From: Acidimicrobiales bacterium
Lineage (GTDB): Bacteria; Actinomycetota; Acidimicrobiia; Acidimicrobiales; Salinilacustritrichaceae
Length of the DNA: 64,000 nt
Direction of reading: 5' to 3'
Assembly (NCBI GenBank): GCA_041618235.1
Contig: JBFJNI010000003.1
Location: 7,253-71,252, forward strand
Positions 5,241 through 45,282 of the stretch are shown here, piece by piece (position 1 is the first letter of the stretch; the number at the start of each line of letters is the position of its first letter). The position numbers and the translations under genes were made by a program. The notes beneath the pieces are model-generated. The model was not told where the DNA came from, made no database searches, and saw only the letters and a program-made list of their open reading frames with translations.

Positions 5241-5957
<717 letters not shown>

Positions 5958-7201
5958 CCGCCCTCGCAGCAGGCGTTCGCCGCCGACGACGGTCACGAGG
6001 GCGGTCATGGTGAGCAATTGGGCGTCGACGATCGCACCGATCGACGACGCCGACAGCACCAGCGCCAGGGTCTGGGCGCCGGCGCCCGCGGCGATGAGCT
6101 TCGGCCCGGTGGATCGGCCTCGTGCGAGGTCGAGGCTCCCCAGGAGATTGGCGACGGTGAACGCCGTGGTCGCCAGCGCGTAGCGCCACAACAGGTGTGC
6201 TGCCTCGCCGTAGCCGGGGCCGACGACGGACGTCAGCACCTGCTCACCCCACAGCGCGGCACCGACCGTCATGACCGATCCGGAGACGAGCACCACGGCC
6301 ACGCCGGCGGCATCCACCCGCGTCGAACCGGAGTCGCCGTCCTGCGCCGACACCGGGAACAGCACGTTGACGACCGACCACGACAGGAAGAACACGGCGC
6401 GGCCGATGAGTGCGACGGCGGAGTAGGTCGCCGCGTCGTCTGGCAGCCAGGCCTTGACGATCAGGACGTCGGCGTTGTTGATGAGGATCTGCGCGACGAG
6501 GAGCACGGCGACTGGTCGGGCGTGGCCGAGCAACGTCGCGCGGTCGGCGGGGTCGATTTCGACGTTCGCGGCCGACCGTTCGACCTGGTGGCGCCCGAGG
6601 AGCCACGTGACGGCGAACGACGCCGACAGCGCGGCGGCGACGCCGCTCGAGCCCGCTCCGATCGCGACGAGCGCGGCGGTGGCGAGCATCCGCACTCCTG
6701 CCTCGGCGAGGAAGCTGATGGCGAGCGTGGTGAAGCGCAAGTGACCCTGGAGCACGCCTCGGTCCACCGCCTGGGCGAGGTAGAAGGGCAGCCCCACTGC
6801 CAGGAGGGCGAACGGTGCGGCCGAGCTGGTGTTGAACACGTGCTGCCACAGCGGTGCGCCCGCGGTGAGCAGGAACGCGGCACCGGAGCCCACGGTCCAC
6901 GCCTGGCGCCGAAGCCATCGGATCGAAGCATCGGGACCGGACTCCGTCGGCGAGGCGGCAACCCGGCGGCTGGCCATCAGTTGGAGTGCGACTGCGCCGA
7001 CGGTGAGGAGGAGGAAGAGGGTGACGATCAGGCTGGCGTCGGCGAACGCCTGCGGCTCCAGCCATCGACCGAGGATGGCGTTGATGCCGTAGTTCGCGCC
7101 GCTGGCGACGAGCATCGCCACCGACAGGACGAGCCCACCGGTCGCCAGGGTGCTGGTCGTGGAGCTGCTGGTGCTGGTCGTGCTGGCGCTGGTCGTGCTG
7201 G

Positions 7202-7513
7202 TCATGCGCTCAGGAGCGCTGGCAGGCCGCAGTAGTCGAGCGATCGCCGGGCAGCAGGCGATGCCGGCTCCACCAGCACGAACCGAGCGCCGCCGCTCTG
7301 GACGGTGGCGGCCCCGCTGGCGATGGCGGTGACGGCGGCGACGTCGAGCTGGACGACAGACCGCAGGTCGACGGTGAGCTCGGTGACGGAGTTGCGGAGG
7401 ACACCTCGCAGCGCCGCTCGAAGCGTTGCCACGGTCGTGATGTCGAGGCGTCCGGCCAGCTCCAGGGTGACGGCGCCGGGGCCGGTGATGTGGTGGTCGA
7501 TGTCGATGGCCAT
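7202..7513 (-). CDS. STAS domain protein (lacks the canonical phospho-Ser)
   Basis: LAGRLDITT...VDLRSVVQLDVAAV. ATG at 7513; ATGA overlap with the next gene. Confidence 0.8.
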   Translation of the reverse strand: MAIDIDHHITGPGAVTLELAGRLDITTVATLRAALRGVLRNSVTELTVDLRSVVQLDVAAVTAIASGAATVQSGGARFVLVEPASPAARRSLDYCGLPALLSA

Positions 7514-7514
7514 G

Positions 7515-7817
7515 TCAGGCCGCCTCGGCGATGTCGTCGACCGGCAGGGCCTCGGTGAGACCGGCGAGCTCGAGGGTGATCCGGGCCGTCTGCGAGATGC
7601 GGCTGATGGCGAGGTCGGCGCCACGCTCGATGGCGGTGGCGCGAGCCTCGACCAGGGCGTGGAGGCCGTACGAGTCGATGAATCGGGTGCGGCCCAGGTC
7701 GAGTCGGACGTGGCCGCTCACCTGGCGCAGGTCGGCGGCGAAGCGCTCGACCTGGTGGGCGTCGAACCGGTCGGCGACGCCGATCTCGGTGGTGTGGTGG
7801 ATGTCGGGGGTGATCAT
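7515..7817 (-). CDS. STAS anti-anti-sigma factor (RsbV/SpoIIAA-like)
   Basis: LDLGRTRFIDSYGL with the conserved Ser, and LELAGL. GGAG RBS upstream of ATG 7817. Confidence 0.85.
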   Translation of the reverse strand: MITPDIHHTTEIGVADRFDAHQVERFAADLRQVSGHVRLDLGRTRFIDSYGLHALVEARATAIERGADLAISRISQTARITLELAGLTEALPVDDIAEAA

Positions 7818-7884
7818 CTCGGCTCCTTGGTGGTTGGTGCTTCCAGCATCGATGGCTGGCTTCAAGTGATCGGGCGGGCTTCGG

Positions 7885-7900
7885 TGAAGAAACGGTCAAG
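7885..7900 (-). promoter_or_regulatory. Putative direct-repeat operator CTTGA-N6-CTTCA upstream of the STAS genes
   Basis: + strand TGAAG (7885) and TCAAG (7896), 11-bp spacing. Confidence 0.4.
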
Positions 7901-7906
7901 CCGTCT

Positions 7907-9844
7907 TCACGCCGCCGCCCGCAGGTGCAGGAGGTGCAGGTCGGCGACCTCACCGATGGGCAGACCGGCTGCTGCGGCAGCGTTCTGCGTGGCGATCACC
8001 GTGCGACGGGCAGGGTCGACGAGCAGCCGCTCGATGGCGTCCTTGAGGCTGTCGACGTCGCCGGGCGTGAACGGCTCGCCGGCGTAGCCCTCCTCGGCGA
8101 TCACGTCGAGGAAGTCGCCGATCGCCGGCAGGATCGCCGCTCGGCCGTGCTCGCCCGCCTGGTGCAACGGGCCCGAGCTCCCGGTCGTGCCGGTGTAGGG
8201 GAAGACGACGGCCGTGGCCGAGCGGAACAGGCCGGCGACGTCGTCCTCGGCCACGTACCCGGTGAAGGACAGCCCGGGCAGGTCCTGGTTGGCCTCGGCC
8301 ACCCCGGCCAGGTAGCCGGGGCAGTTCGGGCTGTCCGTGCCGGCGATCACCAGCTCGAGGTCGTACCCGGCCTCGACGAGCAGGCGATGCGCCGCAACGA
8401 GGTCTTCGACCTTCTTGTAGGTGCCGAACTTCCCGAAGGCCAGGAGTCGAGGTCGGTCGGGCACCGTGGTCGGGGCCGGCTCGGCCTCGCCGAAGGAGCC
8501 GTGTGGAGCGAGGTAGACGTTGGTGGCGCCGTAACGCTCACGCAGGATGTCGACGTAGGCGGGGATGGTGACGGCGACGCGGTGGGCGAGCAGCACGGTC
8601 CGCGTGAGCAGGCGGCCGATGCCGGTGAGGACCTTGGCGACGAATCGGTTCGAGGTGAATCCGGCAGCATCGAGATCGACGGTGTCCACGAGGTTGTGGA
8701 GCAAGACCACGGTCGGCGTGCCCGTGAGCCGCAGGAGGGCGGGCGTCAGCAGACCCAGCGCGGCCGGGACCTTGCCGGCGCCGAACGAGGCGAACTGGAT
8801 GTTGAAGAGCACGACGTCCGGCCGGTGGCGACGGACGGCCAGGAGCAGCCGGATCGGGTTGGCGACCGAGTCGAAGCTCCAGCAGCGGTCGACCGTCGCG
8901 CCGAGCGGGGCGGGCACGTCGTCGACCGAGTCGTCGCAGAGCACGACCACGTCCTGGACGTCGGACTTCCGAGTGAGCTGGCGGACCAGGTGGTAGCCGT
9001 ACTCGTTGAGCGTCAGCTTCGACGGGGGCAGGGGTGTGACCACCGCCAGGCGGATGCCGACCCGGGGCTCGTCGCCGGCGACTCGGAGCGGCCGGAGGCT
9101 GCGATGGCGGCGGCGGATGCGCACCATGTCGACCAGGAAGTTGAGGGCCTCCCGGGCGGGGTCGACCTTCGAGCCGGGTGCGTCGACCCAGTGAACGGGG
9201 ACCTCGACGACCTCGAGCCCGATGCGGTTGGCGACCCACAGCAGCTCGAGGTCGAACGAGAACCCTTCGATGGTCTGTGCATCGACCAGCCGGGCGGCGG
9301 CCTCAGCGGTGAACAGCTTGAACCCACACTGTGAGTCCTCGATCCCCACGGGGAACAGCACGCGGACGAGGAGGCGGAACACGGTGCTGACGAGTTGCCG
9401 GACGGTGGAGCGGCTGGCCTCTTCGGCACCATCGGCGCCGCGGGAGCCGATGGCGATGTCGGCACCGTCGTCGATCGTGGCGATCAAGCGGTCGAGCTCC
9501 TCGATGGGGGTGGAGAGGTCGGCGTCACTGAACAGGACGAGACGGCCTCGTGCGGCCCGGAGGCCGGAGCGGACGGCGTTGCCCTTCCCGCGGTTCTCGT
9601 CGGCCACGATCAGCTCGACGTTGGCGAAGTCGAGGTCGGCGACGATGTCGGGGGTGCCGTCGGTCGAGCCGTCGTCGCTCACGATGAGCTCCCACGGCAT
9701 CCCGAGATCGCTCACGTGGGAGGCGATCGCCGCGATGGTCGGCACGATGCGCTGTGCCTCGTTGTACGTGGGGATCACGACGCTGAGCTCGGGGCGCTCG
9801 GACAGGGGGTGCTGCTTCCAGCGGAGGTAGTTCTCGTAAGCCAT
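7907..9844 (-). CDS. Bifunctional glycosyltransferase: GT2 (polyprenyl/dolichyl-phosphate sugar synthase-like) + GT4
   Basis: VVIPTYNE, SDDGSTDGT, SDADLS, DSQCGFKLF and FDLEL; then AFGKFGTYK, VVFPY and SSGPLH. Confidence 0.9.
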   Translation of the reverse strand: MAYENYLRWKQHPLSERPELSVVIPTYNEAQRIVPTIAAIASHVSDLGMPWELIVSDDGSTDGTPDIVADLDFANVELIVADENRGKGNAVRSGLRAARGRLVLFSDADLSTPIEELDRLIATIDDGADIAIGSRGADGAEEASRSTVRQLVSTVFRLLVRVLFPVGIEDSQCGFKLFTAEAAARLVDAQTIEGFSFDLELLWVANRIGLEVVEVPVHWVDAPGSKVDPAREALNFLVDMVRIRRRHRSLRPLRVAGDEPRVGIRLAVVTPLPPSKLTLNEYGYHLVRQLTRKSDVQDVVVLCDDSVDDVPAPLGATVDRCWSFDSVANPIRLLLAVRRHRPDVVLFNIQFASFGAGKVPAALGLLTPALLRLTGTPTVVLLHNLVDTVDLDAAGFTSNRFVAKVLTGIGRLLTRTVLLAHRVAVTIPAYVDILRERYGATNVYLAPHGSFGEAEPAPTTVPDRPRLLAFGKFGTYKKVEDLVAAHRLLVEAGYDLELVIAGTDSPNCPGYLAGVAEANQDLPGLSFTGYVAEDDVAGLFRSATAVVFPYTGTTGSSGPLHQAGEHGRAAILPAIGDFLDVIAEEGYAGEPFTPGDVDSLKDAIERLLVDPARRTVIATQNAAAAAGLPIGEVADLHLLHLRAAA

Positions 9845-9921
9845 GCACCGAAGCTACGAACGGCGTTTCAAGGCCCTCGCGGGGTCAGGTCAGGCTCTGT
9901 CGAGGATCGCGTGAACCCGCG

Positions 9922-9937
9922 ATTGACGTGCGCTTGA
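9922..9937. promoter_or_regulatory. Putative direct-repeat operator ATTGA-N6-CTTGA upstream of the GT2-GT4 gene
   Basis: ATTGA at 9922 and CTTGA at 9933 (11-bp spacing); a further TCAAG at 9868. Confidence 0.4.
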
Positions 9938-9947
9938 GGTTCGCCGG

Positions 9948-10565
9948 TCAGGCGCCGGGCTCGACCGGCCGGCTGGCGACCCGTTGCCACTGGCGGATTC
10001 GCCAGTTGCCGTCCTCGAGGAGGAACACGACCTCGAAGGTGTCGTCGGTGACCCGGGTGACCGGTCCGGCCGGACCGTGGATGACCCGCCCGAGACGGAC
10101 CGGGTCGGCGCGGAGCCCGACGATCGCACCGTCGTCGCTGTAGAAGCCGATCTGGAGCTCGTGGCGCCCGAGCACCAGTTCCACCGGCTCGCTTCCCGCA
10201 GATGCGAATGCCTCCGCCTGTTCGAGGGCCGGGCCGGCGAACCACGTGGACAGCAACGACGGGTCGCCGGTGGCCGACCGCTGGAGCGCCTGCCACGAGC
10301 GGGTCCACGCCGCCTCGAGTGCGCGGCGGGTGGCGGGCTCGACCTCTCGCTCCTGCAGCGGAGCATCGGGCTGCCAGACGACCACGTCCCGCAGCGCGGG
10401 TACCCCGTCGGGGACCTCGGTGAGGGCGTCGGCCGGGTCGGCGCCCTCGGTGGTGCGCTCCTGGATCCGAGCCAGGGAAGCGATGACGACCAGCGCCACC
10501 AGCGCCACGAGCGCAAGCGCCATCGGGCCGATGATGCGCTTCAGTCGGTTGCGGTCGACGTTCAT
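9948..10565 (-). CDS. Membrane-anchored extracellular hypothetical protein (NTF2-like fold suspected)
   Basis: Manual start at ATG 10565 (ATGA overlap), one N-terminal TM helix, ends FLLEDGNWRIRQW. It is the C-terminal part of track ORF 9948..11462. Confidence 0.75.
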   Translation of the reverse strand: MNVDRNRLKRIIGPMALALVALVALVVIASLARIQERTTEGADPADALTEVPDGVPALRDVVVWQPDAPLQEREVEPATRRALEAAWTRSWQALQRSATGDPSLLSTWFAGPALEQAEAFASAGSEPVELVLGRHELQIGFYSDDGAIVGLRADPVRLGRVIHGPAGPVTRVTDDTFEVVFLLEDGNWRIRQWQRVASRPVEPGA

Positions 10566-11779
10566 CGGATCGACCGCTCGACGCCGAGCACGACGACCCT
10601 CGCACGCGGGCTCGGGGCGCTGGTCGACTCGAGTCGGGCGCGCCCGTCCACGGCGAGGGCCCGCAGCGGGGGAAGACCTGGTCGGACCACGACGATCTCC
10701 GTGCCGTCGGGGATCCAGCCCCCGTCGACCATCCGGACCGGCCCGACGTCGACGGCCCAGCGGTCTCCCTGTTCGGAGACCGCCGTCGGGATGCCGTCGA
10801 CCGCCGCGCCGTAGTCGAGCGTGAGCGGCGGGGAGTCGACGCCCGAGCTCGAGGCGACCACACGGAGCGTGCCGGGCACATCCGGTGCCTCGATCCGGGC
10901 CTCGGCACGGCCGTCGATCGTGGGCGCGGTCAGCAGCCGGCGCCCGGTCGGCTCGTCGACCCGGAACATCACGACGGTCCCGTCGGTGACGATGTTGTCG
11001 TGGCGGTCCCTGATCTGCCCGGTCGAGACGCGATGCAGGCGGCGCCCGTCGGCTCGGAACGGCGCCCCGTCCGAGAGGTCGACCTCCACGTCGATCGCGG
11101 TGGGACGACCAGCGACCTCGTCGAGATCGGCGACCGGCCCACCGATCGTTCCGAGCGACACCGTGATCGTGGCTCGCCCGGCGACGGTCCCCGAGAACAC
11201 GCGGCGCCACACCACGAGACCGGTGGTCTCGACGATGCCCCCGGCCTCCCGGTTCCCCGGCTGGCGCGCGGCGAGCACGGCGTCGCTGCGAGTGGGGACC
11301 GGGTTCCCGTAGCGATCGGAGATCACCGCGACCACCATGGCGTGGTCCTCGCCGTCGGCCACGATCGACTTCGGCCCCACGAGCGGGACGATCGGCTCCA
11401 CCGGGGCGCCCGCGTCGATCCGGACATCGACGAACGCTTGGTCGCGCCCGGCGATCACCCACACCTCCACCACGCCGGCCGATCGCGTGATCGACGCGTC
11501 GACTTGGAGGGAGCCTTCGCCGTCGCGGAGGTCGACGTGCCTCGAGACGCTCCCTGCGCTGGCGGTGAAGACCAGCTGGGCCGAGTCGACCGACGGGTTC
11601 GCTCCGGACACGGAGACCGGCATCGGTGCGCCGGCGTCGAGGCGTCGGGGTGCCTCGATCTCGAGTCGCCCCGTCGCCGCCGGGATCTCGGACGGATCAT
11701 CGTGCCTGAGGATCACCACGGCGGCGACGATCAGTGCGATGGCGGTCCACGCAGCGGCGATGCGCATCCTCGTGCTCAC
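10562..11779 (-). CDS. Membrane-anchored Ig-like (Big_1/invasin-like) domain protein
   Basis: N-terminal TM helix, beta-rich sequence, SIVADG...ISDRYGNPV and IRDRHDNIVTDGTVV patterns. Confidence 0.7.
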   Translation of the reverse strand: MSTRMRIAAAWTAIALIVAAVVILRHDDPSEIPAATGRLEIEAPRRLDAGAPMPVSVSGANPSVDSAQLVFTASAGSVSRHVDLRDGEGSLQVDASITRSAGVVEVWVIAGRDQAFVDVRIDAGAPVEPIVPLVGPKSIVADGEDHAMVVAVISDRYGNPVPTRSDAVLAARQPGNREAGGIVETTGLVVWRRVFSGTVAGRATITVSLGTIGGPVADLDEVAGRPTAIDVEVDLSDGAPFRADGRRLHRVSTGQIRDRHDNIVTDGTVVMFRVDEPTGRRLLTAPTIDGRAEARIEAPDVPGTLRVVASSSGVDSPPLTLDYGAAVDGIPTAVSEQGDRWAVDVGPVRMVDGGWIPDGTEIVVVRPGLPPLRALAVDGRARLESTSAPSPRARVVVLGVERSIR

Positions 11780-13035
11780 GACGCCGCCCTCGAGAAGCCG
11801 GTGACCATCACGTCGACTCCCATGATCTCGGGGTCGGTGACGGTGAGGAACACCGAGGGGGTCGGGAGCGCGTCAGCGAGATCGGTGAGGCCGTTGTCGT
11901 AGACCACGCCCGGCAGGTCCACGGGTTCGATGCCCGCCATCGTCGCCAGCGGCACCCGGATCTCGATGCTGCGCTGCGGGCGCACGGCGTCCGGAAGGTA
12001 GGCGTGGTCGACCCAGAGGAGCCGCCCGTCCTCGTCGCGGTAGGTCAGCAGCACGTGCGGCACGGTCACCTCCGAGGTGCCGTCGTTGCGCAGCGTGCCG
12101 ACCAGGAACGATCCCTCGGGGTCGTCGACGATCCGAGCGTCCTGCACCTCGAACGGACGATTCAGCTCGCGGGCCGTGACGACCGCCTTCGTGTACACCG
12201 CGAACCCTGCGACCCGTTCGTCGTCGATCACCAGGGCCGTGGTGGCTTCTGGTGCGAACTCGCCCGCGGTCGGGTCACGGACGTCGAGGGCGCCGGCGAT
12301 GCCCTCGAACTCGATGCGGAACGGTGCGCGCTCCTTCGGCAGCAGCTTGTGCACGGTGATCTGGGCGGCGTCGTACTGGGCGAGCACCTCGCCGTCGCGG
12401 TCGAGGATCTGCCCCGTCACCGTGACATCCGCGGGATCGACGTCGGTGTTGATCACCTCGCCCACGAGCACCCAGCGACCATCCACACGCAGGAGTCTGG
12501 CGTCGACGGTCGTGGTCTCCGGACGGTCGAGGATGTCCGCGTAGGCGGTGGTCCCCACGGTGACGCGCCGGCGGCCCTGGGAGAGGAAGTCGATGGTCGT
12601 GCGGCGCACGAACTGGTCGGGCGGCACCGTGACGTCGGTGGGTGTCGCAACGAGGTGCCAGCGGCCGTCCCGACGGACCAGATCGTGATCCGTCGTCGCC
12701 TCGTAGCGCTGGAGCGAGGTCACGTAGCTCACCTCTGCCCGGACCGTGGCCCTGTCGGCGACCTGGGTGAGCAGCGTCGTGTCGATGCGTTCGAGCTTGC
12801 CGTACGACGCCACGAGTCCGTCGGCCACCGAACGTTCGAGCAGGAACTGGTCGAGATCGGGGCGATGCTGGGGATCGAGGCGGCCGTGCGCGGCGGCGAG
12901 TCGGGAGAAGTCGATGTCGTCGTAGTACGACTCGACGACCGCTTCCGGCGACGACGCCCGGCGGCCCGACGACAGGGCGACGACGGCGAGGCCGGCGACG
13001 AGCACCGTCGTCACGATCGCCGTGGCACGGCGCAC
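11776..13035 (-). CDS. Extracellular module (TM + NTF2-like + two FxLYD-like Ig domains); probably the C-terminal part of the upstream gene
   Basis: LVGEVINT...VTVTGQILDRDG and LVGTLRNDG...LLTYRDEDG. Same frame as 13096..15033, separated only by one TAG. Confidence 0.65.
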   Translation of the reverse strand: MRRATAIVTTVLVAGLAVVALSSGRRASSPEAVVESYYDDIDFSRLAAAHGRLDPQHRPDLDQFLLERSVADGLVASYGKLERIDTTLLTQVADRATVRAEVSYVTSLQRYEATTDHDLVRRDGRWHLVATPTDVTVPPDQFVRRTTIDFLSQGRRRVTVGTTAYADILDRPETTTVDARLLRVDGRWVLVGEVINTDVDPADVTVTGQILDRDGEVLAQYDAAQITVHKLLPKERAPFRIEFEGIAGALDVRDPTAGEFAPEATTALVIDDERVAGFAVYTKAVVTARELNRPFEVQDARIVDDPEGSFLVGTLRNDGTSEVTVPHVLLTYRDEDGRLLWVDHAYLPDAVRPQRSIEIRVPLATMAGIEPVDLPGVVYDNGLTDLADALPTPSVFLTVTDPEIMGVDVMVTGFSRAAS

Positions 13036-13095
13036 CCGGCGGTGTGGCGTCCGCTCGAGGCGTTCGAGCAGTGCATCGCCACGGAGCTGCCACCG

Positions 13096-15033
13096 CTACC
13101 ATCGAGGGGCGATGCGGTCGCCGTCGACCGTGGACGCGATGGCTGCGAGCCGGCCGTCGACGTCGGCCCACCGACGAGCCGGCCAGCTCTGCCCGATCGT
13201 CGAACGCAGGCCCGCTGCCGCGGCCCGGAGGCGTCGGGGCGGCCGGAGCCGGTTCGTGATGCTCGCGAGGAGCGCCAGCAGGGCCGAGACCACGGCCGTC
13301 ATCGGCACCGTGCCCCAGAGGGCGCGCTGCCATGTGGGGATCTCCCGCGAGGGCAGCTCGGCCGGCAGCGGCGCGATGTCTTCGCGTTCCCACACCTGGA
13401 TCCCGTTGGCGAGCACCTCGAGTCGGTGCCAGCCCGAGAAGGCGAGCAACGGGTCGTAGAACTGGTCGTTCGAGAAGACGAACTTGAGGTGGTACTTGCC
13501 GGGGACGGCGAGGAACTGCTGCAGCGAACCGATGCCGGGGACACCACGGAACTTGGCGCCCTCGAGTCGTTCCACGGGCGTCGAGGTCAGCTCGGGAAGT
13601 CGTCGAGCCGAGTGGTAGTTGCCGTCGACCGTCGTGGCGTCGGTGTTGGCCGACAGCCACGCCATCTGGTCGCCGAAGCCGAGTGCCAGGTACCGCCAGC
13701 GGTCGTGCTGGTCCTTCTCCATGAACTGCGCGATGGGCTCGGGATCGATGGGGTCGGGCTGGAAGCGTCGGAGCGCCGGCAGGTCGGCAGCGAAGACGGC
13801 CATGCCGACGAATGCGAGCGCCAACCCGACCTGGATGACGGGGAGGGCCGCGCGACCGAGCTGGGTGCGCACGGCAGTGGCGACCCGTCCCACGTGGAGG
13901 CTGTCGAGGAACCAACCAGCCATGGGCAGGACCGCGATCGTCGCCCAGAAGGTGAAGCGGTCGAGGGTGAGGATGTCGAACGCGCCCCCGAGGAGGAGGC
14001 GGGGGATCGGTGTCGTCCCGCCGGTGCCGAGGAGAGTGAGCAGCAGCACCGATGCCATCAGCGGCCACGCTCGGTTCGTGAGGCCCCGGACCACCGCGAA
14101 CGGGAGCAGGAGCAGGAGTGCGCCCCACGGCACCGCCCAGAACACGAGCCCGGCATTGGTGTCGGAGAGGAAGTCGGCCCGGCTGGCGTGCGGGATGGGG
14201 ATCTGCGTAATCGGGTCGCTGCTGCTCCACAGCCAGTACGGCAACACGACGAACAGGAGCGTGACGACGACCAGGCAGCCGTACACGCCGGCGCGGACCG
14301 TTGCCGGCAGGATCCGACGGACCCGCCGGACGATCAGTGGCTTGGCATTGCGCCGCGTGACACGGGTGGGATGGAGGTCGGTCTCGTCGGGCAGGGGCGT
14401 GCGCAGACGGTCGAGCAGCGCCGTGGCGACGACGGGGCCCAGGAAGAAGACCGATCCGAAGAGGGTCGTGACATGGTGCCCGGCCGTGGTCGCAGCGGTG
14501 CACAGCACCGCCAGGAGGAGGGCCCGGCCGTGTCCCCAACGGACCCACCGGAACGCGAACGGCATGGCGTTGAGCAGGAAGCCGAGCGAGAAGGTGGTGG
14601 GCAGCTGCCCGAACGTGTGGACCGCCTCGGCGATGGACGAGCTCACCGCCGCCAGCAGGGCGGCCCAGGCGGCGGCCTCCGGGCGGACCCAGATCCGTGC
14701 GAAGCGGTACACCCCCACCACCAGCAGGAGGACCGCTGCCAGCTGCACGGTGACGAAGGCCCACTCCAGGCCGACCAACCGGGACGCGAGGGCCATCGCT
14801 TGGTGGGTTCCGGGCGGGTAGCTCGTGGTGGTGAACCCGGTGTACCAGCGGGGTTCCCACGTGTTGAACCAGCCGCGGGCGTAGTGGTCGGCGAAGAAGA
14901 TGTGGACGTAGGCGTCGTAGGTGCGTCGGAAGCTGCCCGAGACCAGGAGTCCGCCGTGGAACAGCGTCGCCACCGCGAGCACGGCGAGGAGGCGCCGGTC
15001 GTGGTGCGCTCGCGGCGTTCGGGTCGACTCCAT
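13096..15033 (-). CDS. GT-C-like polytopic membrane protein (lipid-linked sugar transferase candidate), ending at an in-frame amber codon
   Basis: First loop RRTYDAYVHIFFADHY...WEPRWYTGF...YPP after TM1, more than 10 TM segments, then a soluble loop (RYLALGFGDQMAWLS, DGNYHSARRLPEL). Confidence 0.7.
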   Translation of the reverse strand: MESTRTPRAHHDRRLLAVLAVATLFHGGLLVSGSFRRTYDAYVHIFFADHYARGWFNTWEPRWYTGFTTTSYPPGTHQAMALASRLVGLEWAFVTVQLAAVLLLVVGVYRFARIWVRPEAAAWAALLAAVSSSIAEAVHTFGQLPTTFSLGFLLNAMPFAFRWVRWGHGRALLLAVLCTAATTAGHHVTTLFGSVFFLGPVVATALLDRLRTPLPDETDLHPTRVTRRNAKPLIVRRVRRILPATVRAGVYGCLVVVTLLFVVLPYWLWSSSDPITQIPIPHASRADFLSDTNAGLVFWAVPWGALLLLLPFAVVRGLTNRAWPLMASVLLLTLLGTGGTTPIPRLLLGGAFDILTLDRFTFWATIAVLPMAGWFLDSLHVGRVATAVRTQLGRAALPVIQVGLALAFVGMAVFAADLPALRRFQPDPIDPEPIAQFMEKDQHDRWRYLALGFGDQMAWLSANTDATTVDGNYHSARRLPELTSTPVERLEGAKFRGVPGIGSLQQFLAVPGKYHLKFVFSNDQFYDPLLAFSGWHRLEVLANGIQVWEREDIAPLPAELPSREIPTWQRALWGTVPMTAVVSALLALLASITNRLRPPRRLRAAAAGLRSTIGQSWPARRWADVDGRLAAIASTVDGDRIAPRW

Positions 15034-15079
15034 GGCCCGAACCGTACGAGTTGGCCGTCAACGGCGAGCCCCGCTTCGT

Positions 15080-15163
15080 TCAAGATCCGCTCAAGGCCGC
15101 GGTCGAGGCGGTCCGGCTCCACTCGCTTGACCCGTTCTTGATGTCTGCAACGTCAACGCTTGA
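15080..15163. promoter_or_regulatory. Divergent promoter region with oppositely oriented 11-bp-phased repeats
   Basis: TCAAG at 15080 and 15091; CTTGA at 15126, 15137 and 15159. Confidence 0.55.
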
Positions 15164-17472
15164 CGCGGGCGACGTACCCTCGGCTCGTGCTCTCGCCCGA
15201 CGACCTCGACTTCCGCGCCGTCGCCCTCCAGGCGCCGGTCGCATGGTCGGTGATCGGCCTCGACGGGTCCCAGATCGTGGGCAACGAGGTCTACGCCGCC
15301 CTGTTCGGCTACGACGTAGACGAGATGTCGGCGTTGCGGGTGTTCGACCTCACGCACCCCGACGACATCGACCTGACCGGCGACTACCTCCAGCAGCTGG
15401 TCGCCGGCGAGATCGAGCGGCACGAGGTCGACAAGCGCTACGTCCGCAAGGACGGCTCGGTCTTCACGGGCCACCTCGTCGCATCGCTCATGCGCGACGA
15501 TGCCGGTGAACCGGTCGCGTTGGTGGGTGTCATCACCGACGTCACGGCGGAGCGGGAGCTCGCCACTCAGGTGGCGCAGAGCGAGGAGCGCTTGTCGAAG
15601 ATGTTGACCAACATCTCCGACACCGTCACCCTCCTCGGGCCCGACGGTGCCATCCGCGCCACCACGGGGTTCCACACCGAGATCCTCGGCTATCCCCAGG
15701 AGTTCTGGGCGGGGACATCGATCTTCGAGCTGGTGCACCCCGACGAGACGGACGAGGCCGCACAGCTGGCGGCCGAGGTCCTCGCGCACCCCGGCGCCGA
15801 GTTGATGGGGGAGTTCCGAGTTCGGCATCGACTCGGGCACTACGAGGACATCGAGCTCGCGGCGGTGAACCTGCTCGAGGACGCCTCCGTGGGCGCGATC
15901 ATCCTCACCACCCGGAACGTGTCGGCTCGAAAGGCGCAGGAGCGTGAGCTGGTGCGGGTGCGTGACCGGGCACTGAAGCTCGCCGAGCAGCGAGCGTCCT
16001 TCGTCGCCAACGTGTCGCACGAGCTGCGCACGCCGCTCCACGCGGTCCTGGGTCTGGCCGAACTCTTGGAGCAGAGCGACCTCACACCGGAGCAGCAGTC
16101 ATTCGTCGCCGGCATCACGGGCGAGGCGACGCGGTTGCGGGAGACGGTCGACGATCTGCTCGACCATGCCCGGGTCGAAGCCGACGGTCTCACTCTCGAG
16201 CCGCAGGATGTCGACGTCCGAAAGCTCATCGAGGTCGTGGTCCGACGCAACGCCGCCGCCGAGCACGCCGCGGGCCTCGCGGTCGAGGCCGTCGTCGATG
16301 CCGGGGTCCCGGAGCGGGCACGACTCGATCCGCATCGCTTCGACCAGGTGCTGACGAACGTCGTGGGGAACGCCGTCAAGTTCACCGCGGAGGGCTCGGT
16401 CGTCGTGCGCGTCGCCGAGGAGGCCGGCGCCCTCGTGGTCCACGTCGAGGACACTGGTCCCGGCATCCCGGCGGCTCTGCATCACCAGGTGTTCGAACCT
16501 TTCATCCAGGTGCCGGGGCAGGCAACGTCGGTGAGCGGCAGTGGACTCGGCCTTGCGCTCGTGCGTGGGCTCGTCGCACTGATGGGTGGCGAGGTCGACT
16601 TCGACGCACGTTCGGGTGGCGGCACCGTGTTCCGCCTCCGCATCCCGTTCGAGGCGGCGGGCGACGACGTCGTCGCCGATCGCCCGACCGGGCCCGAGGC
16701 ACCGGCGAGCACCGGGATCTCGGTGCTCGTCGTCGAGGACAACGAGACCAACCAGATGCTGGTGCGCCAGCAGCTCGCCCGCCTCGGTCATCACTGCGAC
16801 GTCTCGTCCGACGCATCCGATGCGCTCGCCCGCCTCGCGCCCCCCGATCACGGGTATGACCTGGTTCTCATGGACTGGCAGCTGCCCGACATCGACGGCC
16901 TCGAGGCCACACGCCGGCTCCGCGTACTCGAGGGCGCGCGACCGCGAGTACCGGTCATCGCCGTCACGGCCAGTGCCATGCCCGAGGACCGTGTCGCCTC
17001 ACGAGAAGCGGGCATGGACGACTTCCTGCCCAAGCCAGTGGCACTGGCCGACCTCTCGGCGATGATCGACCGTTGGGCGCCGGCGAGGAAGCCGACGGCC
17101 GCTGACACCGGCGCCGTGCCTCACGTCGACCTGTCGAAGCTCGAAGGCCTGGTCGACGATCTCGGCGACCGGGACATCGTCGTCTCGCTCGTGACCAGCT
17201 ACCTCTCCGAGCTCGACGCCCGGGAACGGCTGCTCGAGGACGCAGAGCGCGACGCCGACCTCGAGGTGATGCACCGCGTCGGGCACACGTTGCGTTCCAC
17301 GAGCCAGATGCTCGGAGCCGACGCGCTGGTCGGCGTCTGCCGGGAGATGGAGGCGGCGACGGACGACACCGACCTGACAGCGCTCATGGCGAAGTTCGAG
17401 GGCGCGGCAGCCGAGTCCCGATCGGGGCTCGCCGCCTGGCTCACCGATCACGAACAGGGAGATGTGGCGTGA
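15160..17472 (+). CDS. Cytoplasmic hybrid histidine kinase PAS-PAS-HisKA-HATPase-REC-Hpt
   Basis: THPDD/VHPDE PAS motifs, VSHELRTPL, NAVKFT, DTGPGI, GSGLGL, VEDN...LMD...KP and HTLRSTS. Start uncertain (TTG 15160 or GTG 15187). Confidence 0.92.
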   Translation: MTRATYPRLVLSPDDLDFRAVALQAPVAWSVIGLDGSQIVGNEVYAALFGYDVDEMSALRVFDLTHPDDIDLTGDYLQQLVAGEIERHEVDKRYVRKDGSVFTGHLVASLMRDDAGEPVALVGVITDVTAERELATQVAQSEERLSKMLTNISDTVTLLGPDGAIRATTGFHTEILGYPQEFWAGTSIFELVHPDETDEAAQLAAEVLAHPGAELMGEFRVRHRLGHYEDIELAAVNLLEDASVGAIILTTRNVSARKAQERELVRVRDRALKLAEQRASFVANVSHELRTPLHAVLGLAELLEQSDLTPEQQSFVAGITGEATRLRETVDDLLDHARVEADGLTLEPQDVDVRKLIEVVVRRNAAAEHAAGLAVEAVVDAGVPERARLDPHRFDQVLTNVVGNAVKFTAEGSVVVRVAEEAGALVVHVEDTGPGIPAALHHQVFEPFIQVPGQATSVSGSGLGLALVRGLVALMGGEVDFDARSGGGTVFRLRIPFEAAGDDVVADRPTGPEAPASTGISVLVVEDNETNQMLVRQQLARLGHHCDVSSDASDALARLAPPDHGYDLVLMDWQLPDIDGLEATRRLRVLEGARPRVPVIAVTASAMPEDRVASREAGMDDFLPKPVALADLSAMIDRWAPARKPTAADTGAVPHVDLSKLEGLVDDLGDRDIVVSLVTSYLSELDARERLLEDAERDADLEVMHRVGHTLRSTSQMLGADALVGVCREMEAATDDTDLTALMAKFEGAAAESRSGLAAWLTDHEQGDVA

Positions 17473-18011
17473 AGGGAGTGATCTTCAACGTGGTCGAGGA
17501 GGTGGTGACCGAGCAGTACGGCGCCGACACCTGGGATGCCCTGCTCGACGCTGCCGGCGTCGAGGGGGCGTACACCTCGCTCGGGAACTACGACGACGCC
17601 CAGCTCGTGGCGCTCGTCGAGGCGGCCGCGTCTGCCCTGTCGACTTCGGCGGCGGATGTGCTCCGCATCGTGGGGCGCGCCGGTTTCGCCAAGCTCTCCG
17701 GCAGGTACCCGCACTTCGTGGCGGCGCACACGACCAGCCGCACCGTCTTCCACGAGCTCAATTCGGTGATCCACCCACAGGTGCTGTCCTTGTACCCGGG
17801 GGCGTCGGTGCCGCACTTCGCGGTCGAGGGCGACGGCGCCCAGCTCGTCCTGCACTACACGTCGGACCGCGGGCTGTGCCACCTGGCCGAGGGGCTCGCC
17901 GAAGGACTGGCGGCCTCGTTCGACGAGAACATCGCCATCCATCAATCCAGCTGCCGCCACCGAGGCGACGAGACCTGTCAGATCGTCGTGGACTACCTCG
18001 ACCGTGGCTGA
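17469..18011 (+). CDS. hnoX: Heme nitric oxide/oxygen-binding (H-NOX) protein
   Basis: MKGVIF start, YTSLGNYDD, proximal His in IHPQV, conserved Pro in VPHF, and YxSxR motif (YTSDR). Confidence 0.93.
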   Translation: MKGVIFNVVEEVVTEQYGADTWDALLDAAGVEGAYTSLGNYDDAQLVALVEAAASALSTSAADVLRIVGRAGFAKLSGRYPHFVAAHTTSRTVFHELNSVIHPQVLSLYPGASVPHFAVEGDGAQLVLHYTSDRGLCHLAEGLAEGLAASFDENIAIHQSSCRHRGDETCQIVVDYLDRG

Positions 18012-18855
18012 CGCCGACGGCTACCGGCGGCGCTACGAGCGGGAGCGCAACGCCCGGAGGCAAGCCGAGCAGATCGCCGAGTCGGCCATCGCCGACCTCG
18101 TGGCCGCCAACGCGGCGCTCGATGAGCGCGTCTCCCAGCGCACCGCCGAGCTGCAGGCGGCCCTCGGCCGGCTCGAAGCCGCCGACGTCCTCAAGTCGAC
18201 CTTCGTGCGCGGTCTCGCGCACGAGATGTCCACGCCCCTGCACGCCATCCAGGGGTTGGTCGAACTCATCGACGAACGCAGTACCAACGCCGAGGTCCGC
18301 TCGTCTGCCAAGCACGCTGCTCAGGCTGCGACCCGGCTCAACCACGCGCTGCGCACACTCCTCGAGTTCGCCGCGCTCACCTCGGGCGACGTCGACACCA
18401 CCCGCTCGTCGCTCTGTCTGGGCGACTACGTCGACCGGGTGGTCGAGCGGTGGCGGCTTCCGGCCGCGCGCGGAGGCTTGCTGCTGGTGAGCGAGGTCCG
18501 CCCCGACCCCTCGGTACTCGTCGACGTCGACGCCGCGCGCCTCGACCAGATCGTCGACGCCCTGGTCGACAACGCGATCCGGTTCGGGCGCACGCCGATC
18601 GGGCTCCGCTTCGAGCGGATCGACGGCCATCGGCCGCGCCTGCAGATCGAGGTGAGCGACGCCGGCCCAGGCATCCCCGATGCGATGCGTGACCGGATCT
18701 TCGGGGCCTTCGAGCGCGGCGAGGACTCGACCGAGGGATTCGGCGTCGGTCTGACCTTGGCCAGGGCGATCGCCGAGCTGCTCGGCGGCGGGATCGAACT
18801 CCGCTCGGGCGACAGTCAGGGTGCCACCTTCGCCGTCGACATCCCGCTCAGCTGA
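18004..18855 (+). CDS. H-NOX-associated soluble histidine kinase (HnoK-like)
   Basis: N-terminal coiled coil YERERNARRQAEQ, AHEMSTPL, DNAIRF, DAGPGI and GFGVGL. 8-nt overlap with H-NOX. Confidence 0.9.
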   Translation: MADADGYRRRYERERNARRQAEQIAESAIADLVAANAALDERVSQRTAELQAALGRLEAADVLKSTFVRGLAHEMSTPLHAIQGLVELIDERSTNAEVRSSAKHAAQAATRLNHALRTLLEFAALTSGDVDTTRSSLCLGDYVDRVVERWRLPAARGGLLLVSEVRPDPSVLVDVDAARLDQIVDALVDNAIRFGRTPIGLRFERIDGHRPRLQIEVSDAGPGIPDAMRDRIFGAFERGEDSTEGFGVGLTLARAIAELLGGGIELRSGDSQGATFAVDIPLS

Positions 18856-18891
18856 GGCCCGCTCACCCGGTCTTCGCGCGTGATCCCGGGT

Positions 18892-18907
18892 CTTGACGAA
18901 GGCTTGA
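18892..18907 (+). promoter_or_regulatory. Putative direct-repeat operator CTTGA-N6-CTTGA upstream of REC-EAL
   Basis: CTTGA at 18892 and 18903. Confidence 0.5.
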
Positions 18908-18988
18908 TGTGGAATCGGTTGGTCCCTGATCCGGTGGGCAGAAGATGCATGCATGGCCGCACACCCCACCCCCGAACGATCCTCGAGC

Positions 18989-20101
18989 ATGAAGGTGCTG
19001 GTCGTCGACGACGACCCCATCATCCGAGCCCTGCACATCGCGATCCTCGAACGAGCGGAGTTCGAGGTCGTGGCCGTCGCCGACGGCCCATCGGCACTCG
19101 CGACGGTCGAAGCCGGTGGGGTCGAGCTCGTGCTGCTCGACTCGCGCATGCCGGGGATGTCGGGCATCGAGGTCCTCGGCGAGCTGCGCGCCTCCGGGTT
19201 CTCGCTTCCGGTGATCCTGGTGACAGGAGCCGCCGAGACCCACGATCGGGTCGAGGGCCTCGAGAGCGGTGCCGACGACTACATCACCAAGCCGGTCGAC
19301 TCGCGCGAGCTGCTCGCCCGGGTGCGAGCACTCGTCCGGAGCCGTCAGGCGGCCGTGGACGCGATGTCGGCACCAGGACCGGACGACGTGGCCATCCGCG
19401 CCGTCATCCTCGACGCGATCGAGCGGAAGCAGTACCACCCCGTCTTCCAGCCGATCGTCGACCTGGAGACGCGCTCCGTCGTGGCGTTCGAGGCGCTGAC
19501 CCGCTTCGATGACGGCTGTCGCCCGGACCTCCGGTTCGGAGAGGCCGAGCGCGTCGGGCTCGGAGACGAGCTGGCCCTCGCCACGCTCGCCGCATCGATC
19601 CGCGAGGCGGTCGAGCTGCCACCCGCCGTCGCCCTGCACCTGAACGTGTCGCCGCAGCTCCTGACCAACTCCGATCTGGTGACCCTCCTCGCGTCGGCCG
19701 ATCGCCCGATCGTCGTCGAGCTCACCGAGCACGATCCCATCGATGACTACGACGCGGCGATCTCGCAGCTCGCGGCACTGGGAGACGACATCCGCCTGGC
19801 CATCGACGACGCCGGTGCCGGCTACTCGAGCATGACCCACATCCTCGCCCTGCGGCCCCACGAGGTGAAGCTCGATCGGGAATGGGTGCGAGGCGTCGAC
19901 GTCGACGTCGCCCGCCAGGCGCTCATCGCCGGCCTCGTCACGTTCGCAACGGCCACCGAGACGGTGCTCGTGGCCGAGGGGGTCGAGACCGAGTCCGAGG
20001 CGGCGATGCTCACCGGTCTCGGTGTCGGCCACGCGCAGGGGTACCACCTCGGCCGCCCCAGCCCGACCGAGGCGTGGCGGCCGGGAGTCGCCGCCGCCTG
20101 A
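18989..20101 (+). CDS. REC-EAL response regulator / c-di-GMP phosphodiesterase
   Basis: VLVVDD...LLD...TG...KP; FQPIV, EALTR, LNVS, ELTE, IDDAGAGYSS, VKLDR, AEGVE and QGY. Confidence 0.92.
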   Translation: MKVLVVDDDPIIRALHIAILERAEFEVVAVADGPSALATVEAGGVELVLLDSRMPGMSGIEVLGELRASGFSLPVILVTGAAETHDRVEGLESGADDYITKPVDSRELLARVRALVRSRQAAVDAMSAPGPDDVAIRAVILDAIERKQYHPVFQPIVDLETRSVVAFEALTRFDDGCRPDLRFGEAERVGLGDELALATLAASIREAVELPPAVALHLNVSPQLLTNSDLVTLLASADRPIVVELTEHDPIDDYDAAISQLAALGDDIRLAIDDAGAGYSSMTHILALRPHEVKLDREWVRGVDVDVARQALIAGLVTFATATETVLVAEGVETESEAAMLTGLGVGHAQGYHLGRPSPTEAWRPGVAAA

Positions 20102-24611: not shown

Positions 24612-26537
24612 TCAGCGCGTCGCTGGTGAGGCCACGTAGTCATCGAGATCGGCGTGCCGCGTCATCGACCAGTAGTCGACGAGCCGGAACGGCGACACCG
24701 AGACCACCCGACCGTGGCGGTTCCGGTACCAGGTGCTCATGCCGGGATGGGTCCAGATCATGCGCTCGTGTGCCGCGTCGACATCGCGGACCCAACGGTC
24801 GTGCGGCTCGCGCCGACACTCGATCGCATCGATGTCGCGCTCGACCATCTGCACGATGGCATCGGTGATGTAGCGCGCCTGGGACTCGGCCTGGAACATG
24901 ATGCTGCCGCCGTGGCCGAGGTTGGTGTTGGGGCCGTACATGCAGAACAGGTTGGGGAACCCGGGGACCGTGATGCCGAGATACGCCGTCGGGTTGTCGT
25001 CGGCCCACGCCTCGTCGAGCCGCTGCCCGCCGCGCCCGAGGACACCGAGCCGGGCGGTGAGGTCGGTGACGTGGAAGCCGGTCGCATAGACGATCACGTC
25101 GGCCGGGTGATGGAGGCCGTCCTCGGTGACGATGCCGTCGGGAGTGATGCGTTCGATCGGTGACGTCACGAGATCGACGTCGGGGCGGGCGATGGTCTCG
25201 TACCAGCCGTTGTCGATGAGCATCCGCTTCCCGTAGGGCGGGTAGGTCGGCAGGCAGGCGTCGACCAGCTGGGGATGGTCGGCGAGCGAGGAGACGATGT
25301 GATCGGTGAGCTCCTGGCGGTGGCGATCGTTTCCCCGATTGAGCGAGCGCTCCGGATGGGGCCAGTCCGGGTCCTTGACCAGGAACGGCAGGAGGCCGTC
25401 GCCGTAGCGCCAGAGGAGCGTGAACCGGAACCACGCAGCGTAGAAGGGGACATGGTCGAGGAGCCACTGGGTGCCGGTGCTCACCTCGCGGTGGTACTCG
25501 GCGATGGGACGCACCCACTGCGCAGACCGCTGGAACACGTCGAGGTGCCCGGCTCGGTCGGCGATGGACGGGACGAGCTGCATCGACGTGGCGCCGGTGC
25601 CGATGACCGCGACGCGCCGACCGTCGAGGTCGAGATCGTCGGGCCAACGCGCCGAGTGGAACGCCGGTCCGACGAACGTCGACGCCCCCTCGAGATCGGG
25701 GATCGAGGGCAGGTTCATCTGCCCGATGGCACTGATCATGATGGCGGCGTCGAGTCGGTCGAGCTCGTCTCCGTCGCCGGAGCGAAGGTCCAGGTGCCAG
25801 GTGCACGACGCTTCGTCCCACCGGGCCCCGATGACCTCGGTGCCGAAGCGGATGTGGGGCGCGACCTCGTGTTCCACGGCGATGCGTTCGAGGTACCCGT
25901 GGATCTCGGATCGGGGTGAGAAGTACCGGCTCCACGGCTCCGGGGTGCCGAAGGAGAACGAGTAGGCGTGGTTCGGCGTGTCGACGCCGCATCCGGGGTA
26001 GCGGTTCTCGAACCACACCCCGCCGGCTCGCTCGTTCTTCTCGATGATGGTGAACGGGATGCCGAGTCGGGCGAGTTGGACCCCGATGGCGATGCCGGAG
26101 ACGCCGGCGCCGACGACGGCCACGTGGGGCAGCCCGCGGTCTCGCTTCGGGCCCTCGGCGCTCGACCAATCGACGAGGGCAGGCGCGAACCCGAGCTGAT
26201 CGCGCATCATCGGGACGTACGCCTCCTCGACCTGCTCGTCGAGGCAGACCCGCATCATCCGGAGCAGCGTGGTGTCGTCGGGCACAGCGATCGCGGGTTG
26301 CGGAATCCCCGAGCGGAGCAGGTCGACCGCGGCCGCTCGGACGTCGGCTTGTATCTCCGGCGGGAGGCCGGCGTGCTCGTCGGCCACGAGGCGCACGTCG
26401 CGGACCGGACGATGGGGCGGCTCGAGCCAGCACTCGTCGCCGGTGATCTGGAAGAGGCACAGGAGCAGCACGCGGAGATCGGCATCGGCGACGGCCGCCC
26501 GGATCGACGGCTCGTCCGGGTCGGCATGCGGATCCAT
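24612..26537 (-). CDS. Flavin-containing / Baeyer-Villiger monooxygenase (4-hydroxyacetophenone monooxygenase-like, with N-terminal extension)
   Basis: GAGVSG, WFENRYPG, FVGPAFHSARW, GTGATS and ATGF. Start chosen at ATG 26537. Confidence 0.9.
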   Translation of the reverse strand: MDPHADPDEPSIRAAVADADLRVLLLCLFQITGDECWLEPPHRPVRDVRLVADEHAGLPPEIQADVRAAAVDLLRSGIPQPAIAVPDDTTLLRMMRVCLDEQVEEAYVPMMRDQLGFAPALVDWSSAEGPKRDRGLPHVAVVGAGVSGIAIGVQLARLGIPFTIIEKNERAGGVWFENRYPGCGVDTPNHAYSFSFGTPEPWSRYFSPRSEIHGYLERIAVEHEVAPHIRFGTEVIGARWDEASCTWHLDLRSGDGDELDRLDAAIMISAIGQMNLPSIPDLEGASTFVGPAFHSARWPDDLDLDGRRVAVIGTGATSMQLVPSIADRAGHLDVFQRSAQWVRPIAEYHREVSTGTQWLLDHVPFYAAWFRFTLLWRYGDGLLPFLVKDPDWPHPERSLNRGNDRHRQELTDHIVSSLADHPQLVDACLPTYPPYGKRMLIDNGWYETIARPDVDLVTSPIERITPDGIVTEDGLHHPADVIVYATGFHVTDLTARLGVLGRGGQRLDEAWADDNPTAYLGITVPGFPNLFCMYGPNTNLGHGGSIMFQAESQARYITDAIVQMVERDIDAIECRREPHDRWVRDVDAAHERMIWTHPGMSTWYRNRHGRVVSVSPFRLVDYWSMTRHADLDDYVASPATR

Positions 26538-26641
26538 GGCCGGACGGTAGTTGGGCATCGCCCCGGCGGATCGGTTCCGGGATTCGAGGGCGGCGCCGAG
26601 CGGGGAGGAATCGGTGCCCGAATCCGACATATGCTCTCGGG

Positions 26642-30202: not shown

Positions 30203-30237
30203 GGGGTGCTTTCGGTGGTGCCGCGCGTCAGCACGGC

Positions 30238-30322
30238 GGAGGTCGGTTGCGTTCGCTGTGGCGTCTCATCCACGGCCTCGGGCTGATGCCCCGGGCAGGT
30301 GGAAGGGCCTGACAGGACCTCC
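30238..30322 (-). promoter_or_regulatory. Candidate structured 5' leader of the SulP gene
   Basis: Sense GGAGGUC (30322-30316) can pair with GACCUCC (30244-30238), enclosing CUGU/ACAG and three short hairpins. TACGGT, a possible -10, lies just upstream. Confidence 0.3.
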
Positions 30323-45187: not shown

Positions 45188-45217
45188 CGGGCGTGATGGT
45201 AACAGCGCTCCGAGATG

Positions 45218-45282
45218 AGAGCACTGCTCTTGACAAGCGTCGCTCGTTGGTGTTCAGTGCTCTGAAACGAGAGCAGTGCTCA
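45218..45282. promoter_or_regulatory. TetR-type palindromic operators and a sigma70-type -35 in the divergent promoter
   Basis: AGAGCA-C-TGCTCT at 45218-45230, AGAGCA-G-TGCTCA at 45270-45282, half-site TGCTCT at 45258, and TTGACA at 45230-45235. Confidence 0.75.

Follow-up and report, generated by a model that had tools for sequence, protein, structure and literature searches.

A conserved CTTGA direct repeat and its proposed OmpR/PhoB-type regulator link H-NOX, REC-EAL and surface-glycan genes in an Acidimicrobiales bacterium

Gene content of the locus

We analysed a stretch of 64,000 nucleotides (64 kb; G+C ~70%) from a marine Acidimicrobiales bacterium (GenBank assembly GCA_041618235.1, contig JBFJNI010000003.1), hereafter called the window, whose positions are used throughout. 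Its left part carries the gene of an OmpR/PhoB-family response regulator (referred to as the 5241 regulator), a surface-glycan cluster, and the genes of a hybrid histidine kinase, a haem NO/O2-binding (H-NOX) protein, a second, sensor-less kinase and a REC-EAL phosphodiesterase of cyclic di-GMP (c-di-GMP), all listed in Table 1. The intergenic regions among these genes contain direct repeats of the pentamer CTTGA. These repeats, the subject of this report, are a real, conserved cis-regulatory element.

Because their starts and stops overlap, the genes of the hybrid kinase, the H-NOX protein and the sensor-less kinase form an operon. In the glycan cluster, the 645-aa, 419-aa and 205-aa proteins matched no Pfam family, and NCBIfam returned only sub-threshold or partial domain matches for the 419-aa protein. 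The order membrane protein, 419-aa protein, Ig-like protein, GT2+GT1 glycosyltransferase (GT), Wzx-like protein recurs in other loci (L003-L082) on contigs with a GC content of 0.32-0.75, indicating that the cluster spans very different taxa. The order GT, STAS, STAS, Wzx-like protein is the same in one related locus, L084.

Distribution of the CTTGA repeat in the window

Expected counts were obtained from 100 dinucleotide-preserving shuffles. The exact pair CTTGA-N6-CTTGA was found three times in the 64-kb window, at 15080-15095 (-), 15126-15141 (+) and 18892-18907 (+), against 0.00 expected. With at most one mismatch there were six pairs against 0.77 expected, a number reached in no shuffle; the additional pairs lie at 7885-7900 (-), 7896-7911 (-) and 9922-9937 (+). 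When two mismatches were allowed, the extra matches were at chance level (14 observed vs 18.4 expected). An unbiased scan of all W-N6-W pairs ranked CTTGA first among pentamers (Poisson p = 4e-6, 0.029 expected). The only periods of CTTGA pairs up to 30 bp were 11 (n = 3) and 22 (n = 1), always as direct repeats on one strand. All pairs with at most one mismatch sit within 7885-18907, in the intergenic regions 7866-7906, 9845-9947, 15034-15186 and 18856-18952, and no such pair occurs elsewhere in the window.

An earlier note on this DNA, read from the letters alone, had listed phased pentamers in the same four regions, and the confinement of the pairs to them holds. Its coordinates were right, but the words at 7885 and 9922 are CTTCA and ATTGA, each with one mismatch, the unit at 15159 lies 22 bp, not 11 bp, from that at 15137, and a third phased unit beside 7885/7896, CGTGA at 7907-7911, had been missed. 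Its statement that CTTGA lies on the sense strand of the downstream gene in four of five arrays, with 9922/9933 as the exception, was borne out.

Arrangement of the repeats in the predicted promoters

Read toward the downstream gene, the sites follow one layout, R1(CTTGA)-N6-R2(CTTGA)-N6-R3(variable)-N6-R4(cTTGA)-N11-TAnnnT-N6/7-ATG/GTG, in which R1 and R2 are strong, R4 is conserved and R3 is not. In 17 promoter instances the R4 hexamer lies exactly 10 nt upstream of the conserved TAnnnT, a -10 element predicted from sequence, and alignments of orthologous promoters showed no conserved -35. Since the start codon follows 6-7 nt past the predicted -10, most of the transcripts would lack a leader. 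A search of 393 kb from high-GC sources for R4-like units with nAnnnT at +16 gave offsets from R1 of 33 (n = 13), 34 (n = 4) and 45 (n = 2), and nothing at the other 28 offsets tested. Outside the cluster, an exact CTTGA with nAnnnT at the R4 spacing occurs at a single place in the 64 kb, 39186 (-), inside a DUF4230 gene, indicating that R4 is not a general promoter element.

The pho box of Escherichia coli ends 10 bp upstream of the -10. The predicted geometry of the CTTGA arrays resembles it: the proximal repeat precedes the predicted -10 by 10 bp, and a -35 is missing. Together with the direct repeats at period 11, this agrees with the likeness to the ~11-bp periodicity of OmpR/PhoB sites that had been pointed out before.

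Five transcription units are preceded by such arrays (Table 1), and each of the three units of the glycan cluster carries the promoter architecture attributed to the regulator. In the STAS-operon promoter, R2 and R4 are 23 bp apart and the transcript is predicted to be leadered, with a Shine-Dalgarno sequence AAGGAG before the ATG at 7817. Upstream of the GT gene, ATTGA at 9922-9926 and CTTGA at 9933-9937 lie on the (+) strand; the functionally placed site there is the sense half-site at 9868-9872, which had been overlooked earlier. A rightward promoter driven by the 9922-9937 pair was considered and rejected, as neither an R4 nor a -10 lies at the required offsets. In the hybrid-kinase promoter, R4 and the bases before it form a small palindrome, GTCAA-CGC-TTGAC (15152-15164), which is not conserved in the orthologous promoters.

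Table 1. Genes and predicted promoters at the locus. R1 to R4 are the repeat units in the order defined in the text; aa, amino acids.
Feature	Position	Strand	Details
OmpR/PhoB-family response regulator	5241-5957	+	Pfam Response_reg 2.7e-32, Trans_reg_C 6.5e-24; REC and winged helix; proposed CTTGA binder
Wzx-like polysaccharide-biosynthesis membrane protein	5808-7205	-	Pfam
Two STAS proteins	7515-7817, 7202-7513	-	Pfam
STAS-operon promoter	7845-7911	-	CGTGA 7911-7907, CTTGA 7900-7896, CTTCA 7889-7885; R4 CTTGA 7866-7862; predicted -10 GATGCT 7850-7845
GT2+GT1 glycosyltransferase	7907-9844	-	Pfam
GT promoter region	9851-9937	-	Sense R4 CTTGA 9872-9868; predicted -10 TAGCTT 9856-9851; ATG 9844, predicted leaderless; weak R2 CCTGA 9894-9890
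Glycan operon	9948-15033	-	645-aa multipass membrane protein 13096-15033; 419-aa protein 11776-13035; Ig-like protein 10562-11779; 205-aa protein 9948-10565
Membrane-protein (glycan operon) promoter	15041-15095	-	R1 15095-15091 and R2 15084-15080 CTTGA; R4 GTTGA 15062-15058; predicted -10 TACGGT 15046-15041; ATG 15033
Hybrid-kinase promoter	15126-15186	+	R1 15126-15130, R2 15137-15141 and R4 15159-15163 all CTTGA; predicted -10 TACCCT 15175-15180; GTG 15187, predicted leaderless
PAS-HisKA-HATPase-REC-Hpt hybrid histidine kinase	15187-17472	+	Pfam; first gene of operon
H-NOX (haem NO/O2-binding) protein	17469-18011	+	Pfam HNOB 6.5e-37; His in VIHP and YTSDR (YxSxR) present; start overlaps kinase stop
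Sensor-less HisKA-HATPase kinase (HnoK-like)	18004-18855	+	Pfam; start overlaps H-NOX stop
REC-EAL promoter	18892-18952	+	R1 18892-18896 and R2 18903-18907 CTTGA; R4 CCTGA 18925-18929; predicted -10 GAAGAT 18941-18946; ATG 18953
REC-EAL c-di-GMP phosphodiesterase (HnoB-like)	18953-20101	+	Pfam EAL 4.3e-43, Response_reg 5.9e-30; EAL, DDAGAG and EGVE motifs; own predicted promoter

Conservation of the motif in related Acidimicrobiia

Lack of conservation in orthologous promoters had been raised earlier as a possible objection to a regulatory role. We found the CTTGA motif kept in more than 10 related genomes. Its position is fixed in the promoters of the orthologs of five genes, those for the membrane protein, the hybrid kinase, GT, STAS and REC-EAL. 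The layout was conserved upstream of the orthologs in related high-GC contigs of Acidimicrobiia, and the surrounding bases varied.

A genome scan with the membrane protein returned only two short contigs, including an Ilumatobacter contig from a metagenome-assembled genome (L001, 62% identity), which carries two exact pairs upstream of the membrane-protein ortholog; the third precedes the gene of an OmpR-type regulator with 56% identity. A metagenome scan returned 80 loci. A pair with at most one mismatch was found 50-140 bp upstream of the membrane-protein ortholog, on the sense strand, in seven contigs (L001, L003, L013, L014, L021, L022 and L034), all of high GC (0.68-0.73); in the metagenome scan it was absent from this place in the lower-GC loci and in several other high-GC loci. 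The promoter layout of the membrane-protein gene was present in L084 as well as in these seven.

The orthologous genes served as anchors for promoter alignments. Six hybrid-kinase promoters aligned in this way had a mean column identity of 68%; invariant among them were all 15 bases in the three CTTGA units, the T-A and the last T of the -10, and TG in the start codon. Nine aligned membrane-protein promoters showed the same pattern of invariance. Gene callers placed the orthologous hybrid-kinase starts 6-7 nt past the predicted -10. The spacers and flanks varied between genomes and between the promoters of one genome, and only the repeat units and the -10 were kept. The R1-R2 spacer of the hybrid-kinase promoter, CCCGTT, is identical in the window and in the cultured Actinospongicola halichondriae.

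In L034 there are further sites at the GT gene (a full sense-strand array, 8890+) and at the STAS gene (a pair at 11740), and L003 carries a site at the divergent hybrid kinase. L084 has the STAS array as in the window (6384-) and keeps the inverted ATTGA-N6-CTTGA pair at 8412+ with a different spacer. The orthologous REC-EAL promoter of L088 reads GTTGA/CTTGA/CCTGA with the spacing seen in the window. A composite site at 16689 (-) in L091, with GTTGA/CTTGA, an R4 CTTGA and TAGTGT, stands upstream of a 64-aa open reading frame (ORF), which may be a further regulon member there.

Linkage of the motif to the 5241 regulator and the hybrid kinase

The 5241 regulator scores below every NCBIfam equivalog cut-off, the best being MtrA (216 bits vs a cut-off of 300), and its closest solved structures are MtrA, PrrA and RegX3 (E-values 7e-51 to 6e-48, full length). 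It is the only winged-helix regulator in the 64 kb, where one other DNA-binding regulator was found, a TetR protein (44489-45253). The regulator gene (+) shares 150 nt (window 5808-5957) with the Wzx-like ORF (-), which converges on it, and the same holds in L084 (4312-4461), so that the last ~50 codons of the Wzx-like membrane protein are antisense to the DNA-binding domain of the regulator.

A protein search with the regulator gave orthologs of 72-86% identity, one of them from A. halichondriae, a member of the family Iamiaceae in the class Acidimicrobiia (PMC12263773). The hybrid-kinase ortholog immediately follows the regulator ortholog in four loci, L083 (A. halichondriae), L085, L086 and L088; in L088, genes for H-NOX, more kinases and REC-EAL come after it. 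The layout of L084 is that of the window, with the glycan cluster between regulator and kinase, and the same four sites are present. The 9-kb glycan cluster of the window (5958-15125) thus sits exactly between two genes that adjoin in L083 (10715-10787) and L085 (10724-10801). The earlier note had assigned the repeats to an orphan regulator at 5241. Linkage and a shared recognition helix favour the assignment, but since orthologs of the regulator adjoin the hybrid-kinase ortholog in relatives, it is not an orphan, and the hybrid kinase at 15187-17472 is its putative cognate kinase.

The motif travels with the regulator gene. Nine of the loci fetched by homology to the regulator alone were informative, and seven of these have a pair no further than ~10 kb from the regulator gene, in most cases within 1 kb (six exact; L092 with one mismatch); ~0.007 exact pairs are expected per 20 kb. 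L090 was uninformative, as it ends 180 bp past the regulator gene. In L083, L085 and L086, with 17.6-20.7 kb per locus, the only exact pair is the one in the regulator-kinase gap, with full architecture. The sole exact pair of L088 is also in that gap, and full arrays are present at both its kinase and its REC-EAL promoters. In these four loci, of 12-21 kb each, the motif lies within a gap of 75-235 bp directly downstream of the regulator.

Homologs of 59-64% identity occur in another context, with a divergent GGDEF gene, a convergent small HisKA gene and a PAS hybrid kinase-Hpt. Here too a pair lies no more than ~1 kb away from the regulator gene (L087 and L091 exact; L092 with one mismatch). 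The pair (L087 11070-11085, L091 9592-9607, L092 9072-9087) is upstream of an 87-aa HisKA-only gene but on the strand opposite to that gene, an orientation that matches that of 9922-9937 in the window.

The recognition helix GDDHVVDVHIANLRKK is identical in the 5241 regulator and all motif-associated homologs. In L010, L011, L040 and L052, loci without the motif, the glycan cluster is flanked by regulators whose recognition helix differs.

Proposed mechanism and alternative explanations

OmpR/PhoB regulators bind as monomers to direct repeats one helical turn apart, forming head-to-tail dimers, and promoters with two or three boxes take tandem dimers (PMC11825685). In the cryo-electron microscopy structure of Mycobacterium tuberculosis PhoP, tandem dimers occupy two PHO boxes, and the downstream dimer, at the -35 position, displaces sigma region 4 (PMC11825685). 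We consider it likely that the CTTGA repeats are the operator of the regulator encoded at 5241-5957 and that its cognate kinase is the hybrid kinase-Hpt protein at 15187-17472. By analogy with PhoB and PhoP, the regulator, phosphorylated by this kinase, would bind as two head-to-tail dimers, one on R1-R2 and one on R3-R4; the downstream dimer would replace the -35/sigma region 4 contact and recruit RNA polymerase. If transcription starts at the start codon, R1 to R4 begin at about -61, -50, -39 and -28. The regulator would activate these -35-less promoters, exert positive feedback on its own kinase/H-NOX operon, and co-induce the REC-EAL phosphodiesterase and the glycan genes. The predicted regulon comprises five units: the kinase/H-NOX/kinase operon, REC-EAL, the membrane-protein glycan operon, the GT gene and STAS-STAS-Wzx. 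On computational grounds, the proposal of the earlier note that the glycan and the H-NOX/EAL genes belong to one feedback regulon is supported. A search of the literature turned up no relevant report of a CTTGA operator for an OmpR-type regulator. The pair would be a new regulator-operator pair with a regulon of a well-known kind.

Several observations weigh against this interpretation. The regulator's own promoter has no motif. The 9922-9937 pair is oriented opposite to the GT gene. In L089, which encodes a 64% identical regulator homolog, no motif was found within 10 kb on either side. The helix GDDHVVDVHIANLRKK is common to several paralog-like groups, and a second regulator of the same specificity could exist in the genome. 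As R3 is not conserved, occupancy by a second full dimer is an assumption, and the position of R4, at about -28 to -23, is also compatible with repression. Finally, the sequence was found in marine DNA metagenomes only, and no RNA run carries it.

The first alternative keeps the same regulator and sites and gives the regulator a repressing or dual role. R4 lies between the expected -35 and -10 positions, where it and its neighbours would block RNA polymerase, and phosphorylation could relieve the block, as in HnoC, the H-NOX-linked repressor of Shewanella oneidensis that is released on phosphorylation (PMC8738867). However, no -35 hexamer can be recognised in the promoters, since R3 shows no conservation, and this is typical of activator-dependent promoters; moreover, the R3-R4 position matches the one used for activation by PhoP (PMC11825685) and in the E. 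coli pho box. We regard a repressing or dual role as rather unlikely.

A genuine OmpR/PhoB-type operator could also be bound by a paralog encoded outside the window with the same or a similar helix, the 5241 regulator being a mere neighbour. This would fit the missing site in the regulator's own promoter and the long tail of 59-68% identical homologs in the database search, among which P0021, P0026, P0032, P0060 and P0099 carry the identical recognition helix in different gene contexts, so that two such regulators could coexist in one genome. Against it, the motif accompanies the regulator gene in every context examined, right downstream of it in the four loci with the short gap, and the window encodes no other winged-helix regulator. 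This explanation appears improbable.

It had also been suggested that CTTGAC resembles a -35 box, and the word does contain TTGAC, the first five bases of the sigma-70 -35 consensus, so the repeats might be core promoter elements read directly by a sigma factor. The spacing contradicts this: the TTGACn hexamer of R4 is 9 bp from TAnnnT and that of R2 31 bp, whereas a housekeeping sigma factor needs 16-19 bp. Furthermore, R3, where a -35 would sit, is not conserved, 39186 (-) is the only other exact CTTGA in the 64 kb with nAnnnT at that spacing, and three phased copies per promoter are not expected of a sigma element. We consider this reading very improbable. That the repeats are a chance or compositional artefact, or functionless copies of a duplicated promoter cassette, is practically out of the question: only the small number of sites in a single window speaks for it, against the observed 3 and 6 pairs where 0.00 and 0.77 are expected and the conservation across genomes of the repeat units and -10 alone.

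Relation to known signalling systems

The sites resemble the pho boxes of PhoB in E. coli and the PHO boxes of PhoP in M. tuberculosis and Streptomyces in being direct repeats one helical turn apart, paired with a winged-helix OmpR/PhoB regulator. The word differs, being CTTGA here and CTGTCAT for PhoB, GTTCACC for Streptomyces PhoP and TCACAGC for M. tuberculosis PhoP, and, unlike in those boxes, the third half-site is not conserved. PhoP promoters have at least two boxes, bound by tandem head-to-tail dimers, with the downstream box overlapping or replacing the -35 (PMC11825685), and the layout predicted here is alike. Unlike the regulators of Pho systems, the 5241 regulator falls below the cut-offs for PhoB, MtrA and all other equivalogs; its predicted regulon consists of signalling and glycan genes, not phosphate genes, and in place of PhoR the putative partner is a cytoplasmic hybrid kinase with PAS and Hpt domains. 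It shares its domain architecture and best sequence matches with MtrA, PrrA and RegX3 of M. tuberculosis, but its gene context is the hybrid PAS kinase-Hpt, not MtrB, PrrB or SenX3.

The Hno network of S. oneidensis consists of HnoX/HnoK, HnoS, the REC-EAL protein HnoB, HnoD and HnoC, and HnoC feeds back on the hno genes (PMC8738867; PMC6335343). The locus resembles it in having an H-NOX gene beside that of a sensor-less kinase, in encoding another kinase with different sensor domains, and in its REC-EAL phosphodiesterase. In the Hno network a response-regulator transcription factor controls its own genes, and the feedback is linked to biofilm and c-di-GMP (PMC8738867; PMC6335343); here there are predicted sites only, which lie upstream of the kinase/H-NOX operon and the REC-EAL gene and make the 5241 regulator a candidate for an HnoC-like role. 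Unlike the Hno network, the present system has an actinobacterial host and a glycan cluster in its predicted regulon, and no HD-GYP domain (HnoD) was found among the window ORFs scanned with Pfam. Unlike HnoC, a repressor relieved by phosphorylation, the regulator is of the OmpR/PhoB type, and the promoter geometry suggests activation. In A. halichondriae no H-NOX gene adjoins the regulator-kinase pair.

The predicted sites connect signalling genes for H-NOX and c-di-GMP with a surface-glycan cluster in a Gram-positive lineage. A review lists the H-NOX proteins of Gram-positive bacteria and of Actinobacteria as uncharacterised, with no function described (PMC8738867). Tentatively, the locus may hold the first regulon that can be defined for an H-NOX-linked signalling system among Gram-positive bacteria, here in an actinobacterial lineage; in it, a kinase-Hpt/H-NOX/kinase module would feed one OmpR-type regulator that directly activates a c-di-GMP phosphodiesterase and a horizontally widespread exopolysaccharide-type cluster. 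If this is true, it is a clear case of regulatory capture, with nitric oxide sensing tied to surface-glycan production. The locus also illustrates how a cluster placed between the genes of a regulator and its kinase can share the promoter architecture of that regulator.

Acidimicrobiia are a common marine class of actinobacteria that has been little studied. For one of their uncharacterised two-component systems we propose a cognate kinase and a small regulon, with the predicted operator and promoter grammar CTTGA-N6-CTTGA-N17-cTTGA-N11-TAnnnT. The cultured A. halichondriae (PMC12263773) has the same regulator-kinase pair and site, which makes the prediction directly testable there.

Further observations in the window

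Further on from the tandem STAS genes of the glycan cluster (7202-7817), a PAS-SpoIIE (PP2C) phosphatase (26447-28681) and a SulP-STAS transporter (28700-30265) are encoded. Together with the STAS proteins, which are anti-sigma-antagonist-like, these could be parts of a partner-switching module; no anti-sigma kinase was seen. In addition, a 1548-aa surface-type protein with seven DUF11 and several DUF7507 repeats (46749-51395) is encoded beside a gene with a LigD primase-polymerase domain (45770-46696).

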